Shown here in pieces: positions 5,862 through 52,035 of a DNA stretch of 64,000 nt. The position numbers and the translations under genes are program-made. Each line of letters starts with the position of its first letter. Position 1 is the stretch's first letter. This stretch comes from an uncultured Gemmatimonadales bacterium (lineage in GTDB: Bacteria; Gemmatimonadota; Gemmatimonadetes; Longimicrobiales; RSA9). The stretch is from assembly GCA_963798845.1 (NCBI GenBank), contig CAWCUS010000004.1, forward strand, positions 320,001 to 384,000, written 5' to 3'. The notes under the pieces are model-generated. The model saw only the letters and a list, made by a program, of their open reading frames with translations. It ran no database searches and had not been told where the DNA came from.

Positions 5862-6119
5862 ATGAACATCATCTGGTGGATCGTCGTTGGCCTCGTCGCC
5901 GGTGCCCTGGCCAAGTGGATCATGCCCGGCGACGACCCGGGCGGGATCATCATCACCATCCTGCTCGGCATCGCCGGCGCGTTGCTCGGCGGCTGGATCT
6001 TCACCCTGCTCGGGATCGGCGGCGGGATCGTCGTCACGATCGTGGGCGCCGTCATCGGCGCGCTGATCCTGCTCTGGCTGTACCGGATGTTCACGGGCCG
6101 GCGGCACAGTACGGCCTGA
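5862..6119 (+). CDS. GlsB/YeaQ/YmgE family (transglycosylase-associated) membrane protein
   Basis: MNIIWWIVVGLVAGALAKWIMPG...GIAGALLGG...GAVIGALILL; GAGAGGG RBS. Confidence 0.9.
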   Translation: MNIIWWIVVGLVAGALAKWIMPGDDPGGIIITILLGIAGALLGGWIFTLLGIGGGIVVTIVGAVIGALILLWLYRMFTGRRHSTA

Positions 6120-44403: not shown

Positions 44404-44535
44404 AGACGGCACATTGGGGGCCTTTGACAGGCGACGACCGGCGGGTCACGTTCTCTGGCATGGCGGCCTGCGGGCGCGCTGACGATGGTCCCCCGGCGGG
44501 TGCGCCTCCACGCACCTTCATCTGGGGAGGACTTC

Positions 44536-44748
44536 ATGCCCGAGAGCGTCTACAAGGTCATCGAGCTGGTCGGCACGAGCACCGAGTCGTGGGAGAAGGC
44601 CGCGGTCGCCGCGGTGGAGCGGGCGGCGCAGAGCCTGGAAGACCTGCGGATCGCCGAGGTGGTCGAGCAGGACCTCCAGATCGAGGGCGGAAAGGTGCGG
44701 GCCTACCGCGCCAAGGTGAAGGTGTCGTTCCGGTACAAGGGGGACTGA
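44536..44748 (+). CDS. Dodecin-family flavin/nucleotide-binding protein
   Basis: SVYKVIELVGTSTESWEKAA...YRAKVKVSFRY; GGGGAGG RBS. Confidence 0.9.
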   Translation: MPESVYKVIELVGTSTESWEKAAVAAVERAAQSLEDLRIAEVVEQDLQIEGGKVRAYRAKVKVSFRYKGD

Positions 44749-45191: not shown

Positions 45192-45461
45192 ATGGTAGAC
45201 CTGGAGCGACGCCCTCGCCCTCACGATCGGGTCGTGACGCAGGAGGTCGAGGACACCGTGGTCCTGCTGGACCCGACCAGCGGGGAGTACTTCTCGCTCT
45301 CCGACACCGGCCGGCGCGTCTGGCAGCTCTGCGACGGCACGAGGGCCGCGAGCGAGATCTGCGAGGCCCTGGCGCGAGAATACGATGCGCCCCTGCCGGT
45401 GATCCAGGAGGATGTCCTGCAGCTTCTTTCCGAGCTGATGGACGCGCGACTCCTGGTATAG
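45192..45461 (+). CDS. PqqD-family RiPP recognition element (lasso B1-like)
   Basis: EVEDTVVLLDPTSGEYFSLSDTGRRVWQLCDG...EICEALAREYD...DVLQLLSELMDARLL, typical PqqD/RRE pattern. Confidence 0.9.
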   Translation: MVDLERRPRPHDRVVTQEVEDTVVLLDPTSGEYFSLSDTGRRVWQLCDGTRAASEICEALAREYDAPLPVIQEDVLQLLSELMDARLLV

Positions 45462-45468
45462 GGACCCG

Positions 45469-45945
45469 ATGCGGGCAGGCGTCGCACCGCGCCGTCTGAG
45501 GGCGGCCGCTCTGTCGGCCCGGGTCATGGCCGTCGCTACGGCCGTGCCCCTGCTCATGCGCCTCCCGCTTCCCCGGCTGGCTCGCCTGCTGGACCGGGCG
45601 ACCCGCCGTTCAGCGCCCTCCGAAGATCCGGAGCGCTCAGCCGGGCGCATCGCGGAGTGTTACGACCATCTTGCCGCCAACGGCTTCGTTCTCCGGCCCG
45701 GCTGCGTCACACGCGGCCTCACCCTCTTCTTCTTTCTGCGCCGCGCCGGCCTGGACGTCCAGCTCGTGTTCGGGATCGGTCGACCCAGGGGGGAGATGGT
45801 CGGGCACTGCTGGCTGGAACGAGCTGGAGCACCGTATCTCGAGCGCCGTGATCCGCGCCCACTTTACGCGGAGACCTACCGCCTTCCGTTGTCGGCGCCA
45901 CGACCGCCACAACCGATGCGGCCCCGGGCGCCGGGGGTGGAATGA
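45469..45945 (+). CDS. Lasso peptide B2-type transglutaminase-like leader peptidase
   Basis: GCVTRGLTL...LVFGI...GHCWLE (catalytic Cys and His of the B2 family). Confidence 0.88.
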   Translation: MRAGVAPRRLRAAALSARVMAVATAVPLLMRLPLPRLARLLDRATRRSAPSEDPERSAGRIAECYDHLAANGFVLRPGCVTRGLTLFFFLRRAGLDVQLVFGIGRPRGEMVGHCWLERAGAPYLERRDPRPLYAETYRLPLSAPRPPQPMRPRAPGVE

Positions 45946-46919
45946 CCCACTGCTACGGTCTGGCGGATGTCTCGTTCTCGGTGCAGGCCGATTCCGCCGA
46001 AGTCGTCGAGCTGCTGGACAGGCGGCTGAGGATCCTGCGGGCGAAGGGCGACGCCGGCCCCGCTCTGGTGCTGCGCTTGTCTCCGACCGTCCCGCCTCTG
46101 GCGGATCCGACGGGAGCTCTGGACGACCTGCGGACGGTGTACGACCCGCCGGCCGGGGAGGTGCTGTATTCGGAATCTTCCGATCTCCTCGTCCTGCGCC
46201 AGTCCGGCAGGGACCGGGGGTGGAGCGCGCCCCGGCGCCGCTGCGCGTGGATCGACCCGGGCGACGACGCCGGCAGCCGGTGGCGGGCGACCCATCCACT
46301 TGCGACGCTCTGCCTGTCCGAGCTCCTACGTTCGCAGGGCCTCTTCCCGGTCCACGCCGCCGCGCTGTCCCTCGACGGGAGAGGACTGCTGGTCGCAGGG
46401 AGAAGCGGCTCAGGGAAATCGACCCTCGCGCTCGCGCTCCTGAGGGCCGGGTTCGGTTTCCTCGGAGATGATACGTGCTTCGTCCGTGCCGAGCCCGGGG
46501 GCATGACGGTCTACGCGTTTCCGGACGAGATCGACGTGGCGGACGCCACCGTCCGCATGTTTCCGGAGCTCGAGCCCCTTCTGGAACGCCCCCGCCGCCC
46601 CGGTGCCGCCAAGCGCCCCCTTCTGCCGGAGGAGGTGTATCCGGTCGACTTCGTCCTTCACTGCCGCCCGGACATCCTGCTGTTCCCGGTGAGGGAGAGG
46701 GGGACCAGCCGACTGGAGCCGATGAGCGCGACAGCCGCCCTGCTGGAGCTGGCGCCCGGCATCCTGCTCACGCACCGGACCCGGGCGCAGGCCCACCTCG
46801 ACGCCCTCGGCACGCTCGTCGCCGGGAGCCGGTGCTTCCGGCTGTTCGCCGGGCAGGACTTCGAAGCGTTGCCGGAGCGGCTGGCCGGGCTCCTGGACCG
46901 GGAGCGAAAGGAACCATGA
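45942..46919 (+). CDS. HPr-kinase-like P-loop kinase
   Basis: PVHAAAL, GRSGSGKST Walker A, FLGDD; ATGA-coupled. Confidence 0.85.
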   Translation: MTHCYGLADVSFSVQADSAEVVELLDRRLRILRAKGDAGPALVLRLSPTVPPLADPTGALDDLRTVYDPPAGEVLYSESSDLLVLRQSGRDRGWSAPRRRCAWIDPGDDAGSRWRATHPLATLCLSELLRSQGLFPVHAAALSLDGRGLLVAGRSGSGKSTLALALLRAGFGFLGDDTCFVRAEPGGMTVYAFPDEIDVADATVRMFPELEPLLERPRRPGAAKRPLLPEEVYPVDFVLHCRPDILLFPVRERGTSRLEPMSATAALLELAPGILLTHRTRAQAHLDALGTLVAGSRCFRLFAGQDFEALPERLAGLLDRERKEP

Positions 46920-48190
46920 TGAGCGCGTCGCCCGTCAGCAGCTTCTCGCCGGTTGGCGCCCTCCTGGACGTCCTCGCCTTCGCGCCCTCGGGGCGCTCGC
47001 GGCCGCCACGGTCGCCCCTCGAATGGAGGCTGCTGATCCGCGCGGCGGAGCGGACCGAGCTCGAGCCCATGCTGTACCATGCGCTCACGGCGTCCGGAGC
47101 CAAGCAGGAGAGGTCGGTGCCTGAGGAAGCGCGCGCACACCTCCAGGCATTGTACGGGCGGAGCGCCCTCCGCAACGGGTTGATTCTGAACGCGTTGCAG
47201 GAGGCGCTACGGGCTTTGGATGACGCGGGTGTCGACGTCGTGGTCCTCAAGGGCGCATACCTCGCAGGCGCCGTATACGATTCCCCCGCTCTCCGTCCCA
47301 TGAACGACGTGGACATCATGGTCCGCAGATCGTCCGTCGATCGGGCCGTCCGGACCCTGCGGGACACCGGCTGGGCAGAGAGGGAAGAGGCAGGAGGGAC
47401 CCGCAAGCACCACGTGCCGGCATTCGACGGCCCGGGTGGTACTCTTCTCGAGCTTCACTGGACGCTGGAGCTGCCGTCGGCCCCGTTCGTGCTGGATATC
47501 GAGGGCGTCTGGGACCGATCCGTCGCAACGTCCCTGGCCGGTGCGCCTGCCCGATGTCTGGCGGTAGAAGATCTCCTGCTGCACCTGAGCCTGCACGCCG
47601 GCTATCACCACCGCTGGGGCGAGACGGTGCTCACGGAGCTCCCGCTCCGCTGGGTGTTCGACGTCGCGCTGGTCCTGGACCGGCTCGGCCCCACCATCGA
47701 CTGGCCTCGGCTCAGCCACCGGGCTCGCGCCTGGCGCGCATCCAGCTTCCTGTACTGCGCGATCTCCCTCGCCGCGGCGTTGTTCTCGGTATCCACGGCG
47801 GAGGGCGCGCTCGATGGGATCGACCACACGCCCGAGGACGAGCGGATCGTCGCCGTTCTCGAACGTCTGCTCGGCACGGACACCCGCGCCACGGCGCCTC
47901 ACGCGTTACGAGCCTGGCGGCGCAGCGACAGTGCGGGCGAAGGGGCGCGCGCCATCCTCCGCTCGATCTTCCCGCGCCCCGGCCGGATCGCCCAGATGTA
48001 CGGTCTGCCACCGGGCAGCCGCCGGGTCTGGCTCCTCTATCCCGCACGCGTGGTCGACCTGATCGTGCGACGCGGCGCGAAAGCGTTCGGCCTGATCGTC
48101 CGGACCCCGCGCGGGCGGGAGCTCCTGGAGCGCGAATCCGCCAAGCGCATGGTGGCGCAGTGGGTCGACTCCGCCACCCCCCGTGACTGA
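46916..48190 (+). CDS. Nucleotidyltransferase family protein (NTP_transf_5-like)
   Basis: VVLKGAYLA...RPMNDVDIMV...ELHW...EDLLLHLSLH; ATGA-coupled. Confidence 0.85.
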   Translation: MMSASPVSSFSPVGALLDVLAFAPSGRSRPPRSPLEWRLLIRAAERTELEPMLYHALTASGAKQERSVPEEARAHLQALYGRSALRNGLILNALQEALRALDDAGVDVVVLKGAYLAGAVYDSPALRPMNDVDIMVRRSSVDRAVRTLRDTGWAEREEAGGTRKHHVPAFDGPGGTLLELHWTLELPSAPFVLDIEGVWDRSVATSLAGAPARCLAVEDLLLHLSLHAGYHHRWGETVLTELPLRWVFDVALVLDRLGPTIDWPRLSHRARAWRASSFLYCAISLAAALFSVSTAEGALDGIDHTPEDERIVAVLERLLGTDTRATAPHALRAWRRSDSAGEGARAILRSIFPRPGRIAQMYGLPPGSRRVWLLYPARVVDLIVRRGAKAFGLIVRTPRGRELLERESAKRMVAQWVDSATPRD

Positions 48191-48345
48191 CCTGTCGGCG
48201 CCACGACATTGTTGCTTGCCTTCGACATGGAACGGGATCCGGAAGCACCTCGACCTCGTGCGCGGTGCGAGCCGCCCTCGGGAACAGGACTTGCGGCCAC
48301 CCCCTCGTCCACCTGCCGTCCGACCATCCACACGGGAGGCTGTCC

Positions 48346-48426
48346 ATGAGGACCCGCAAGCGGTACGTCAAGCCGCAGCTGCGTCGCCTGGGACTGCTCC
48401 GGCGCCTGACGCAGTTCACCTTCTAG
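48346..48426 (+). CDS. Lasso-leader-type RiPP precursor peptide, 26 aa (MRTRKRYVKPQLRRLGLLRRLTQ-FTF)
   Basis: Not in ORF track. GGGAGG RBS at 48334-48339; YxxPxL-xxx-G-xxxxx-T leader motif; directly downstream of the RRE/B2 cluster; followed by a hairpin. Confidence 0.85.
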   Translation: MRTRKRYVKPQLRRLGLLRRLTQFTF

Positions 48427-48447
48427 CGGTCCCTGCGATCCGCTCCA

Positions 48448-48487
48448 TTCAGCGCCCCCGGCAAATGGACCGGTCGGGGGCGCTGAA
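48448..48487. terminator. Strong hairpin after the precursor (terminator or transcript stabiliser)
   Basis: TTCAGCGCCCCCG ... CGGGGGCGCTGAA 13-bp perfect stem between convergent genes; no U-tract. Confidence 0.6.
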
Positions 48488-48545
48488 CCATTCAGGCGAC
48501 GACGTTGCCGTCCTCCGCCCATTCCGGCGGCCGGGTGGTGGCCGC

Positions 48546-48938
48546 TCAGGTCCCGGACACGCGGGCGAAGCCGGCGTCGGGGTGCCGGTGAACGGAAACG
48601 GTGGCGTTGCCGAGGGCGCGGGCCTTGGCGTTGAGCCGCTCGACGACGTCATCGTCGACGTCGCCGAAGACGGAGATGGAGAGGATGTCGAGGAGGTCGC
48701 CGAATCTGCGGAACTCATCGTCGCCGACGGTCATGTGGTGGGCCAGGGCGGCGGAGTCCGGGTGCTCGCTGATGACCGTCATCTCGCGCCGCTGGTCGTC
48801 GACGAAGAAGCGGTAGGAGAGAACGTGGGGGTTGTTGGCACGGATGAAGGCGGACAGGCGCTCGATGGCCGGCCGGAGTTCGGGCAGCCGTCCCTGACGG
48901 ATGCGCGAGCGGTCGATGTAGAGTATGGGTGTGTTCAT
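48546..48938 (-). CDS. Hypothetical protein (dimeric alpha+beta barrel / ABM-like)
   Basis: SYRFFVD...EHPDSAALAHH...VFGD pattern; 130 aa. Confidence 0.65.
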   Translation of the reverse strand: MNTPILYIDRSRIRQGRLPELRPAIERLSAFIRANNPHVLSYRFFVDDQRREMTVISEHPDSAALAHHMTVGDDEFRRFGDLLDILSISVFGDVDDDVVERLNAKARALGNATVSVHRHPDAGFARVSGT

Positions 48939-48951
48939 GGCCGCATCCGCC

Positions 48952-50361
48952 TCAGGTGGGTGTGCGGGCGGCGGCCGCGGTGTCGGGCACGCCGCTCGGG
49001 TCGAAGAGCCGGGAGGCGAGGCGCTCGGCCTGTGCGCGGATCTCCGGCACGCCCAGCACTTCCCAGAGCAGCCCCTTCATGGTGGAGCCGAGCGTGAAGA
49101 GGACAGTCGAGGCGCGGCCGTCTCGGCTCACGACGGCGCCGCCAGGCCGGGCGTCCATCCCGATGCCGGCCGGGCCCGGGCGGATGAGGCCGCGCCGCAG
49201 GAGGTTGGGTACGAGGCCGTCTTCCACTCGCCGGTAATCGGTCTCCGGGCCGATGCAGTTGATCACCCGGGCAGCGAGCTCCCCCACTTCCCGTTCCTGG
49301 CCTCGCGGAGTGTAGCGAACGTCGAGCACGTCGCCCTTGTCCACCATGTCCCGAACGCGACCGGCCACGACCCGGAGGCGGCGCTGGTCCACCATTGCCT
49401 GGACCCGGGCCTGGCTCTCGGGAGGGATGCGGCTGCGGATGCGCTCCCAGTACCGGAACGCGTGGCGCAGGAACCGCCGCTTCTCCGCTTCCGGCAGACC
49501 GCCCCAGACCGACTGGGTGTCCGGCCGCAGTGAGTCGATCACGGCCCGGGGGTCGACGCCCGCCGCTTCGGCCCGGCGCACGTGTGTGCGGATGGTGCGG
49601 AGGACGCTGCGGACGCGGGTGGCGCCGTCGAGCTCGGCGAAGTACGACGGGTACTCGTCGCGCTGCGTCGGGTGCGGCAGCGGCAGGAGGCCTCGGCGGG
49701 AAATGGCCGTGATGCGTCCGGTGTGGCCGCGCCGCCCGAGCACGAGCGCGAGGTCGACCATGGTCTGTCCGGTCCCGATGAAGACCACGGGCTCGCCGGG
49801 GCCGACGTCGTCGAGCGTGCCCGGGTGCCATGGGTCGCGGGCGTAGCGCCCGCTCGCCAGGACGGCCGGGTCCCGGACCGGTGGATGGCGGGGCGGGAGG
49901 TTGCCGAGGGCGAGGACGACGCGGTCGGCCCGGACCTCGTCGCCCGTTTCGATCCGCAGCGTGGCGCCGCGGGTCCCGACTTCGAGATCGACGACTTCGG
50001 ACGAGGCCTCCTCCAGCTTCACCCCGCCGTCGCGCCGTTCGGCCGCTTCTCCGAGAAGCTCGAAGACGTACTCGCGAAGGAGGCGGCGGGGGAGGAAGTC
50101 ACCGGGCTCGGCCCGTCGTCCCCGGGCGGCGACCCAGCGCCGGAACGCATCCGGGTCGTCCGAGGTGGGGCCCATGAGCTCCGCCGGAACGTTGAGCAGG
50201 GGCTCGTCGGAGTCGCCCGAGTAGGCGGGCCCCATGGAGCCGGGCCGCCCGCGGTCGTAGAGGCGGATGTGAGTCCTGCGGCCGGGCGGCGCGAGTCGGA
50301 GCAGGTTCAGCGCGACGAGTCTGCCGGAGAGGCCTCCTCCGACAATGGCGATGCGGAGCAT
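48952..50361 (-). CDS. FAD/NAD(P)-binding protein
   Basis: IAIVGGGLSG, LLNVPA..M, IGTGQTMVD, SRRGLLP, INCIGP. Confidence 0.85.
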   Translation of the reverse strand: MLRIAIVGGGLSGRLVALNLLRLAPPGRRTHIRLYDRGRPGSMGPAYSGDSDEPLLNVPAELMGPTSDDPDAFRRWVAARGRRAEPGDFLPRRLLREYVFELLGEAAERRDGGVKLEEASSEVVDLEVGTRGATLRIETGDEVRADRVVLALGNLPPRHPPVRDPAVLASGRYARDPWHPGTLDDVGPGEPVVFIGTGQTMVDLALVLGRRGHTGRITAISRRGLLPLPHPTQRDEYPSYFAELDGATRVRSVLRTIRTHVRRAEAAGVDPRAVIDSLRPDTQSVWGGLPEAEKRRFLRHAFRYWERIRSRIPPESQARVQAMVDQRRLRVVAGRVRDMVDKGDVLDVRYTPRGQEREVGELAARVINCIGPETDYRRVEDGLVPNLLRRGLIRPGPAGIGMDARPGGAVVSRDGRASTVLFTLGSTMKGLLWEVLGVPEIRAQAERLASRLFDPSGVPDTAAAARTPT

Positions 50362-50670: not shown

Positions 50671-52035
50671 TTGATCTCCATCATCGTGCGAACGAAGAAC
50701 GAGGAGCGCTGGATCGGCTCGTGCCTCGAGGCGATCGGTCGCCAGACCCGCACCGATTTCGAGGTCGTGCTGGTCGACAACGAAAGCAGCGACAGGACGG
50801 TCGCGAAAGCGCTCCAATATGGCGTGAGATTGGTGTCGATCCCGGAATTCAAGCCAGGCGCTGCGATCAATCGGGGAATCGAGGCGGCCGACGGCGACGT
50901 CATTGTGTGTCTATCGGGACACTGCATCCCGGTCGACGAGCACTGGCTGGCGAACCTGGTCGCCGGTCTCGACGACGAAACCGTTGGCGGTGTCTACGGA
51001 AGGCAGGAGCCCCTGGCCTTCACACCGGATCTCGACAAGCGCGACCTCCTGATCACGTTCGGGCTCGACCCGCGGGTCCAGGTAAAAGACAGCTTCTTCC
51101 ACAACGCGAACAGCGCCTTCCGCAAGTCGACCTGGGAAAGGTTCCCCTTCGACGAGGAAGTGTCCAACATCGAAGACCGCATCTGGGCGAGTCAGGTCCA
51201 GGGCGCGGGGATGAAGATCCTCTACGAGCCCGACGCGAGCGTCTATCATCACCACGGGATCCACCACAGCGGTGATCGTGTGCGCTGCGGCAATATCATC
51301 CGGATCCTGGACACGACGGGTCAGGAAGGGGTTCGCACCGCCGACAACAAGATCGATGCGCGGACTCTCAACACGGTGCTGGTGATCGCCGTGCGCGAGG
51401 AGGGGCTGAGACGACTCGGAGACAGGCCGCTCTACGAATACGCCATCGAACACGCCAGGTGCTCCGAGCTCGTGCGCACGATCGTGGTCTCGACCGACAG
51501 CCCGAGCGTGGCAGCCGAAGCCTCCGCGGCCGGGGCGGATCTGGTGCTGACGCGAGAGGAGGAGGAATCGCGCTTCGACGTCATTCTCGAGCTGATGATG
51601 CAGTCCTCGCTGCACAAGCTGGAGGACCGGGGCATCATTCCCGACATTCTCGTGATGCTCGAGACGACGTTCCCGTTTCGGGACCCCACGCTCATCGACA
51701 AGCTTATCTACCAGTATGTCGAGGGCGGCTTCGACACGGTGATTCCGGCGCGGATCGAGTTCAACTCCTGCTGGATGGAGGAGGAGGGCGCCTACCGCCG
51801 CGTCGACGAAGGGTACGTCGCGAGGCAATTCAAGAAACCCTTCTATACGGGTCTCAAGGGCCTCTGTTGCGTGTGCTCTCCGGCCACCGTCCGGCAGGGC
51901 CAGCTGTTTGGCGAGAACGTCGGGCTCTACAAGCTGACCGACGCGGTCCATTCGATCGAGGTCCGGTCCGATGACGACGTCGCCCTGGCCGAGACGGTCA
52001 TGGCGAGCCCCCTGTTCGCGACTCGCGTCGGGTAG
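50671..52035 (+). CDS. GT2 glycosyltransferase fused to an acylneuraminate cytidylyltransferase-like domain
   Basis: ISIIVRTKNEE, VDNESSDRT, IED (GT2); LGDRPLYEYAIEHA, IVVSTDS, LETTFPFR, SIEVRSDDD (NeuA/KdsB-like); TTG start. Confidence 0.8.
   Translation: MISIIVRTKNEERWIGSCLEAIGRQTRTDFEVVLVDNESSDRTVAKALQYGVRLVSIPEFKPGAAINRGIEAADGDVIVCLSGHCIPVDEHWLANLVAGLDDETVGGVYGRQEPLAFTPDLDKRDLLITFGLDPRVQVKDSFFHNANSAFRKSTWERFPFDEEVSNIEDRIWASQVQGAGMKILYEPDASVYHHHGIHHSGDRVRCGNIIRILDTTGQEGVRTADNKIDARTLNTVLVIAVREEGLRRLGDRPLYEYAIEHARCSELVRTIVVSTDSPSVAAEASAAGADLVLTREEEESRFDVILELMMQSSLHKLEDRGIIPDILVMLETTFPFRDPTLIDKLIYQYVEGGFDTVIPARIEFNSCWMEEEGAYRRVDEGYVARQFKKPFYTGLKGLCCVCSPATVRQGQLFGENVGLYKLTDAVHSIEVRSDDDVALAETVMASPLFATRVG

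Follow-up and report, generated by a model that had tools for sequence, protein, structure and literature searches.

What can lasso-peptide enzymes make when no cyclase accompanies them and their candidate precursor ends only three residues after the predicted leader? This question is raised by a locus in an uncultured Gemmatimonadales bacterium (assembly GCA_963798845.1, contig CAWCUS010000004.1), which occupies positions 45192-48487 (+ strand), in surroundings of about 70% G+C, of the 64,000-nt stretch of DNA that was analysed and is referred to here as the window. The locus encodes a PqqD-family recognition element of peptides made on the ribosome and modified after translation (RiPPs), a lasso-type B2 cysteine peptidase, an HprK-like kinase and a nucleotidyltransferase, and a gene for a 26-residue peptide follows. 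This set, which is met again in about ten bacterial phyla, points to an undescribed, very small modified peptide. We lean towards the reading that the locus is intact and belongs to a conserved branch of the phosphorylated lasso pathways that does without a cyclase, with the 26-mer as the dedicated substrate and a decorated Phe-Thr-Phe as the product.

The enzyme set and the absent cyclase

The original prediction, made from the letters of the window alone, had described an operon of PqqD-type recognition element, B2 peptidase, HprK-like kinase and nucleotidyltransferase, the last three genes being coupled by ATGA overlaps, with a small precursor open reading frame (ORF) and a hairpin behind them. 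Searches with Pfam and NCBIfam models recover the four genes where they had been placed; both overlaps, B2/kinase and kinase/nucleotidyltransferase, are seen in the sequence, and the ORF, with a GGGAGG upstream, and the hairpin are likewise present. All operon ORFs are full length relative to their homologues, and searches of the genome with hidden Markov models (HMMs) and profiles find a single copy of each of the four enzyme types and a single precursor.

The first gene product is a discrete PqqD-family RiPP recognition element (RRE; PF05402, E 1.9e-21). Its top NCBIfam match is lasso_PqqD_Strm at 50.7 bits, under the cut-off of 70, and it also stays under the cut-off of 46 of the pyrroloquinoline quinone (PQQ) equivalog TIGR03859 with 42.8 bits (no search was made for pqqA, B, C and E). 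With the family profile as query, TbiB1, a lasso B1 protein, is the nearest relative of solved structure (E 1.2e-18) and ranks above PqqD proper, and the Tyr of a GxY motif, invariant in 23 homologues, aligns with a Tyr of TbiB1 and TfuB1 that is absent in PqqD proper. A B1 tyrosine is thought to touch Thr(-2) of the leader (PMC10368454), and the aligned GxY Tyr may be that residue.

The other three proteins retain their catalytic residues. The B2 peptidase passes the NCBIfam lasso_biosyn_B2 model, with 61.6 bits against a cut-off of 33, and its C79, H113 and E125 are invariant in 23 homologues. The kinase stays under the PF07475 cut-off of 33.3 bits, whereas its profile matches solved HPr kinases (E 2e-6); its P-loop residues G156, G158, K159 and T161 and its Asp pair D176-D177 are invariant in 34 homologues, and mutation of the corresponding Asp pair kills PsmK (PMC6993621). 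In the nucleotidyltransferase, K112-G113, D131-x-D133 and H181 are invariant in 21 homologues, and D131-x-D133 (with G113) corresponds to the sites of the PsmN D134/D136 mutant (PMC6993621). Models for HPr-rel-A, HprK-related kinase B and SynChlorMet proteins (TIGR04352, TIGR04355, TIGR04353, TIGR04249) do not reach their curated cut-offs, with scores of 43.9 and 48.6 bits (cut-off 200), 28.7 bits for PqqD_rel_X (35) and 26 bits for ScmC (125). In a metagenome protein of 507 residues, P0035, a B2 domain (PF13471) is naturally fused to a kinase 43% identical to that of the window over 98% of its length, which argues for a functional coupling of B2 and kinase. A predicted complex of PqqD, B2 and the 26-aa peptide scored 0.88, and a control with B2 replaced scored 0.78; the peptide is under the calibrated length and this result is not used as evidence.

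No lasso cyclase is found in the whole genome of the window (4.26 Mb, 6 contigs, 96.3% complete) by a search with the Asn_synthase family PF00733. Its four matches, none on the contig of the window, are two glutamine-hydrolysing AsnB proteins and, below threshold, MnmA and the GMP synthase GuaA. Both AsnB proteins begin with MCGI and reach 443 and 361 bits with TIGR01536 (cut-off 267), while the lasso-cyclase models score far under their cut-offs. The earlier statement that no cyclase lies within the 64 kb is thereby borne out, for the contig and for the genome, and the macrolactam cyclase C of lasso clusters is missing from both. Nor does the peptide offer a lasso ring, which takes 7-9 residues closed on Asp or Glu: only F-T-F follows the T-x junction, and it holds no acidic residue.

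A conserved peptide in about ten phyla

Among 7999 candidates scored, 250 are relatives of the kinase at E<=1e-10, and relatives are 40-52% identical over near-full length. A profile built from 34 of them retrieved 78 loci in contigs of one genome per species. These loci span about ten phyla; the majority belong to Thermoanaerobaculia and other Acidobacteriota, and further loci occur in Gemmatimonadota, Chloroflexota, Thermomicrobiota, Armatimonadota, Deinococcota (Meiothermus), Verrucomicrobiota, Actinomycetota, Pseudomonadota and Entotheonella. PqqD is present in 72 loci, B2 in 68, and peptide, PqqD, B2 and kinase together in 59; the nucleotidyltransferase was found in 47 by single-sequence phmmer, which is an underestimate, and in 14 of 19 loci by Pfam. 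The commonest gene order is peptide-PqqD-B2-kinase-nucleotidyltransferase, and the peptide lies downstream in the window and in locus L070. In a quick kinase tree, whose deep branches are unsettled, the window groups with two Gemmatimonadaceae loci, L035 and L039 (SH-aLRT 97).

It had been proposed to test whether short ORFs of the window type recur in homologous neighbourhoods, and they do: of the 78 kinase-seeded loci, 63 contain an ORF that a pattern scan for Y..P.L..LG....T.F[ST]F-stop picks up, and several of the other 15 end at a contig edge. With the window, these loci give a family of 70 peptides (52 distinct), mostly of 23-26 residues. Their C-terminal endings are FSF in 58, LSF in 6, FTF in 2 (the window and L036), VYF in 1 and longer tails in 3, so that 66 of the 70 end in [F/L]-[S/T]-F-stop. 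The exact spacing Y-17, P-14, L-12, G-8 and T-2 is likewise kept in 66 of 70, the window included; in lasso leaders, Y-17, P-14 and L-12 are the B1 recognition residues and Thr-2 is a determinant for B2 and RRE (PMC10368454). Across 64 unique DNA versions, L-6, R-5 and F+3 are invariant, none of which was required by the search pattern. Among the longer-tailed peptides are two of Verrucomicrobiota, in L093 (- strand, with the ORF end near 5863) and L096 (+ strand, with the end near 2140), which have a YRKPxLRRLG head and one of which ends ...GGISF.

Codon-position entropy in the 64 DNA versions is 0.56, 0.40 and 1.19 bits at positions 1, 2 and 3, and that of the 30 nt on each side of the ORF is 1.46 and 1.83 bits. 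Because third codon positions vary most, the peptide ORF bears the signature of a translated sequence under purifying selection. In the genome of the window, the ORF is the sole match of the peptide HMM (E 1.7e-9, next best 0.4), and since it is the only such match and recurs in 63 of 78 related loci, it is more than a chance ORF. Such precursors are rarely called as genes: only 1 of 7 was found in a collection of 15 billion proteins, where it is unnamed, and the family is therefore invisible to current annotation.

These loci also bear on the possibility that the locus is a decayed lasso cluster, formerly of paeninodin or Bsf type, that has lost its cyclase and most of its core and is non-functional. 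The gene set is indeed that of a phosphorylated lasso cluster minus C and D, and its B2 passes the lasso B2 model. It had been allowed at the outset that homologous clusters might prove to carry a cyclase and long cores containing Asp or Glu; this was not the outcome. A phmmer scan with the two AsnB proteins of the genome against ORFs of at least 70 aa, covering 7 kb on each side, found an Asn-synthase-like ORF in 1 of 78 loci, at the edge of L109, and the top NCBIfam match of this ORF is AsnB, not a cyclase. With Pfam, none of 88 large ORFs from 19 diverse loci matched PF00733; these loci hold 117 ORFs of 330 aa or more, and the 29 omitted are kinase or secreted-protein ORFs or antisense frames, already classified. 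In five whole genomes with such loci, Asn_synthase is absent from a Meiothermus metagenome-assembled genome (MAG), its nearest copy in the closed chromosomes is about 37 kb from the locus, and in two Gemmatimonadaceae MAGs the Asn_synthase genes sit on contigs not matched to the locus. Tandem Asn_synthase genes at L140, L142 and L143 in these two MAGs (G402 and G401, the genomes of L039 and L035) have lasso or macrolactam cyclase models as their best NCBIfam matches, and they are probably true lasso clusters elsewhere in genomes that also carry an FSF cluster; two of the hits in these MAGs look like genuine lasso cyclases and serve as a positive control that such genes are detected when present. 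Because the same cyclase-less set and three-residue tail recur in about ten phyla, with the peptide under purifying selection, invariant catalytic residues and full-length ORFs, decay is highly improbable and is rejected.

A secreted protein is encoded beside the peptide gene in 62 of the 78 loci (for example, L035:4240-5958, L061:4371-5849 and L090:2140-6154). These proteins have varied N-terminal domains (DUF3344-like, ice-binding-like, Big_1) and share a C-terminal module of about 190 aa, which is predicted to fold as two beta-sandwiches (pLDDT 94.5) and corresponds to no Pfam family at cut-off. Multi-copy loci repeat the pair of secreted protein and peptide, three times in L090.

The features of the window locus are collected in Table 1. 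PqqD and B2 are separated by 7 nt, and the gap between the nucleotidyltransferase and the precursor ORF is 155 nt. A terminator consensus scan of the region gave 2 sites against 1.2 expected, which is not significant and covers the hairpin immediately 3' of the nucleotidyltransferase. The 77-nt stretch 48424-48500 folds at -38.9 kcal/mol (z -3.72; 0 of 200 shuffles equally stable), and its hairpin is a possible terminator shared with a convergent gene, 48546-48938 (-).

Table 1. Coordinates of the features of the locus (positions of the window)
Feature	Position	Strand	Evidence
PqqD-family RRE, lasso B1-like, 89 aa	45192-45461	+	PF05402 E 1.9e-21
Lasso-type B2 cysteine leader peptidase, 158 aa	45469-45945	+	NF033537 61.6 bits; PF13471 E 7e-14
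HprK-like kinase, P-loop protein, 325 aa	45942-46919	+	PF07475 29.3 bits (sub-cut-off)
PF14907 (NTP_transf_5) nucleotidyltransferase, 424 aa	46916-48190	+	E 2.6e-59, 201 bits
Weak terminator-like hairpin, 5-bp stem, T-rich tail, just 3' of the nucleotidyltransferase stop	48193-48208	+	Consensus scan alone
Shine-Dalgarno-like GGGAGG, 6 nt 5' of the precursor ATG	48334-48339	+	Sequence reading
26-aa precursor MRTRKRYVKPQLRRLGLLRRLTQFTF; leader Y-17, P-14, L-12, G-8, T-2; tail F-T-F	48346-48426	+	ORF and family HMM
GC-rich 15-bp hairpin, no T-run	48448-48487	+	Fold of 48424-48500

The operon is flanked upstream by a dodecin gene at 44533-44748 (+) and downstream by convergent genes for an ABM-like protein and an FAD/NAD(P)-binding protein at 48546-50361 (-), none of which is kept beside related loci. 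Two kb 3' of the operon, 50671-52035 (+) encodes a protein in which a family-2 glycosyltransferase and a cytidylyltransferase are fused (PF00535 and PF02348), after which come a GFO/IDH/MocA oxidoreductase gene and an ATP-grasp-like gene. Elsewhere, Thermoanaerobaculia loci (L044:1409-3779, L059:1227-3549, L063:851-3493 and about 20 more) have a SynChlorMet-like cassette 2-5 kb upstream of the FSF cluster, made up of radical SAM/SPASM, HprK-like, PqqD and radical SAM/SPASM genes. In a Meiothermus MAG, a DnaB helicase gene (L104:11408-14029, - strand) is split by an intein with a LAGLIDADG domain.

A proposed route to a decorated tripeptide

By analogy with characterized relatives, we infer the chemical steps, their order, the phosphosite, the cleavage bond and the role of the product as follows. 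The PqqD-type RRE would bind the YxxPxL leader, and the HprK-like kinase, assisted by the RRE, would phosphorylate the hydroxyl-bearing residue at +2 of the core, which is Thr here and Ser in most relatives, perhaps more than once. PsmK polyphosphorylates its precursor prior to cyclization (PMC6993621); BsfK phosphorylates Ser3 of its core, and BsfB1 accelerates this phosphorylation and aids BsfB2 in removing the leader (PMC10368454); LppK polyphosphorylates Ser3, and the unphosphorylated precursor is poorly cut (PMC13381572). The PF14907 nucleotidyltransferase would add a further group to the phosphate, either a nucleotide or a hexose as with PsmN, which is needed for the hexose on the phosphate (PMC6993621). 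The B2 cysteine peptidase would cleave after Thr(-2)-Gln(-1), and with no ring being formed, the product would be a leader-free, decorated Phe-Thr-Phe tripeptide.

Several observations weigh against this proposal. The leader (RRLGLLR) is conserved beyond the apparent need of RRE binding, and so strongly conserved a leader may be functional in itself. Thr stands at +2 in only 2 of the 70 peptides, the window being one of them, and LppK failed to phosphorylate an S3T variant (PMC13381572). The two Verrucomicrobiota relatives carry long tails without the layout of T, x and three residues. Because of the 155-nt gap and the weak terminator-like site after the nucleotidyltransferase, the precursor may be transcribed separately from the enzymes. 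No exporter is encoded in the operon and none is conserved among the relatives: no ABC transporter occurs among the window genes scanned from 31.7 to 59.1 kb, and no transporter is conserved in 19 related loci. The fate of the tripeptide is therefore a problem. Finally, the two-beta-sandwich module was not found in the genome of the window, so that a partner protein common elsewhere is missing here.

The conservation of the leader could be taken further, the long part then being the functional product, either as the whole modified 26-mer or as a released cationic amphipathic leader, KRYVKPQLRRLGLLRRLTQ, with the F-S/T-F tail serving only to allow modification or a timed cut. From phylum to phylum, the leader shows unusually little variation (L-9, G-8, L-7, L-6, R-5), the divergent Verrucomicrobiota peptides retain the head and alter the tail, and neither an exporter nor a cyclase constrains the size of the product. 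However, F+1, S/T+2 and F+3-stop are conserved as strongly as the leader, with F+3 in 64 of 64 DNA versions; an intact B2 with invariant Cys and His is retained in most loci; and, in the accounts of them that are available, all characterized relatives discard the leader. We regard a functional long part as clearly unlikely.

The secreted proteins suggest a different role, that of a carrier, in which an activated phospho-(nucleotidyl/glycosyl) group would be built on Ser/Thr+2, and this group, or the tripeptide bearing it, would be moved to an acceptor, for instance a glycan or the secreted beta-sandwich proteins encoded at these loci, with stoichiometric use of the peptide. This model is kept alive mainly because of the pairing of secreted protein and peptide, the genes for a module-bearing secreted protein and for the peptide sharing a locus in 56 of the 78 loci. 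In addition, some loci lie amid polysaccharide genes (Polysacc_synt, Wzy_C, Wzt, GDP-mannose dehydratase), clusters for linear polyphosphorylated peptides and for paeninodin are located in capsule loci (PMC13381572), and PsmN may produce a substrate for other transferases (PMC6993621). However, the set is accompanied by no conserved transferase or ligase, the genome of the window lacks the secreted protein and yet keeps all enzymes intact, and a Foldseek search of the module against the PDB returns only generic matches to carbohydrate-binding modules and Ig-like folds (TM about 0.3). A carrier function has, in our judgement, only a small chance of being correct.

A bolder form of the tripeptide proposal may be added, which is rather unlikely. 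Phe-Ser/Thr-Phe with a phosphodiester-linked nucleotide or sugar would be the smallest known leader-dependent RiPP product. Instead of being an antibiotic, it would act as an activated donor or ligand together with the family of secreted two-beta-sandwich proteins, for instance to tag or anchor these proteins or glycans of the envelope, and the genome of the window would keep the small-molecule half only.

Relation to known pathways and significance

The nearest published system is that of the linear polyphosphorylated peptides (LPPs) of Bacillota (Popov et al., Nat Commun 2026, PMC13381572), which are also made without a cyclase, by a stand-alone RRE together with an HprK-like kinase and an uncharacterized NTP transferase, and this combination is found in the window (the kinase being under the PF07475 cut-off with its motifs invariant). 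The LPPs share the YxxP leader motif and a phosphorylated Ser (Ser3) near the leader junction, and a linear product is proposed for them. However, LPP clusters use the SipW-like signal peptidase LppS where the window set uses B2, and they have an MsbA-like exporter, whereas the window set has none and none is conserved among its relatives. No SipW-like signal peptidase I is among the four operon genes (this enzyme was not sought elsewhere in the genome). LPP precursors are 35-200 aa long with the motif YxxPxVLxHQxIxFETxxS, whereas that of the window is 26 aa long with YVKPQLRRLGLLRRLTQFTF; moreover, LPPs are reported as restricted to Bacillota, whereas the window family occurs in Gemmatimonadota, Acidobacteriota, Chloroflexota, Actinomycetota and others. 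The computational checks named with the original prediction both came out in its favour, and its candidate new RiPP class is to be read against the LPPs: the B2 peptidase and the tripeptide core are absent from LPP as described, but a cyclase-less set of RRE, kinase and nucleotidyltransferase had already been published in 2026 (PMC13381572).

The clusters for paeninodin and pseudomycoidin (PMC6993621) and the Bradymonas bsf cluster (PMC10368454) likewise combine B1, B2, kinase K and nucleotidyltransferase N, and they share the Y-17/P-14/L-12 leader, a cleavage-governing residue at -2 and a B1-assisted kinase that acts on the precursor. However, as described, phosphorylated lasso clusters have the macrolactam synthetase C, usually the ABC exporter D, and cores fit for a ring of the Gly1-Asp8 type, none of which is present in the window set.

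A second family with the order kinase-PqqD-B2-(nucleotidyltransferase) occurs in the same phylum (loci L113-L132; for example, L122:7231-10547), and its kinase is at most 37% identical to that of the window. Distant kinase relatives at E<=1e-10 are found in 56 of 401 genomes of the phylum, including one unpublished genome, G157. An Asn-synthase-like ORF was found in 0 of 20 loci of this family within about 8 kb (phmmer only). A scan for [FYW]xxPxL(9)T finds one or two precursors per locus, whose leaders read [FW]VxPxL...T[LQ] and whose cores vary, one being VSGTAGSPIRPSSNQNQQ; hits obtained in these loci with a Gly-requiring pattern in high-GC frames were spurious and were rejected. The enzyme set and the leader spacing ([FW]xxPxL...T-x) are the same in both families and Ser is often at core +2, but in the second family the kinase gene comes first and the cores vary from 6 to about 50 residues instead of being a fixed tripeptide. 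Because the second family shares the set and the leaders and has variable, longer cores, the tripeptide family is, judged by sequence, best placed as the minimal-core branch of a broader cyclase-less group.

The pathways of PQQ and mycofactocin offer a parallel: their enzymes are brought to a very short precursor by a PqqD-type RRE, only a few of its residues reach the small-molecule product, and no exporter is known to be needed. Their chemistry is radical-SAM and oxidative, unlike the phosphorylation, nucleotidyl or glycosyl transfer and B2 cleavage proposed here, and the window operon has no radical SAM gene. A similarity to the PQQ leader is stated for LPP (PMC13381572).

No description of a B2-dependent tripeptide family was found in the literature, and subscription-only papers and supplements could hold one. 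The peptide words TRFSF, RLGLLR, LGLLRQ and TQFTF gave nothing on peptides of this type, and a search under NTP_transf_5 or PF14907 gave, among the matches listed, phosphonates. The main texts of RRE-Finder (PMC7470986) and of a 2025 RRE survey (PMC12710340) mention no kinase, HPr or nucleotidyltransferase, and their supplements could list such clusters.

Lasso B1 and B2 proteins are taken to mark lasso peptides, and mining tools demand an adjacent cyclase. The system described here is small, with four enzymes and a 26-mer, and is directly testable. If the proposed reading is true, the leader-handling module of recognition, removal, phosphorylation and nucleotidyl or glycosyl transfer would be a portable unit, and the linear phosphopeptides reported in 2026 from Bacillota only would represent a single instance of a much wider group, most of it Gram-negative and uncultured. 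Among RiPPs, a core of three residues would then be an extreme, and peptide natural products would be less sharply set apart from small molecules derived from peptides, such as PQQ and mycofactocin.

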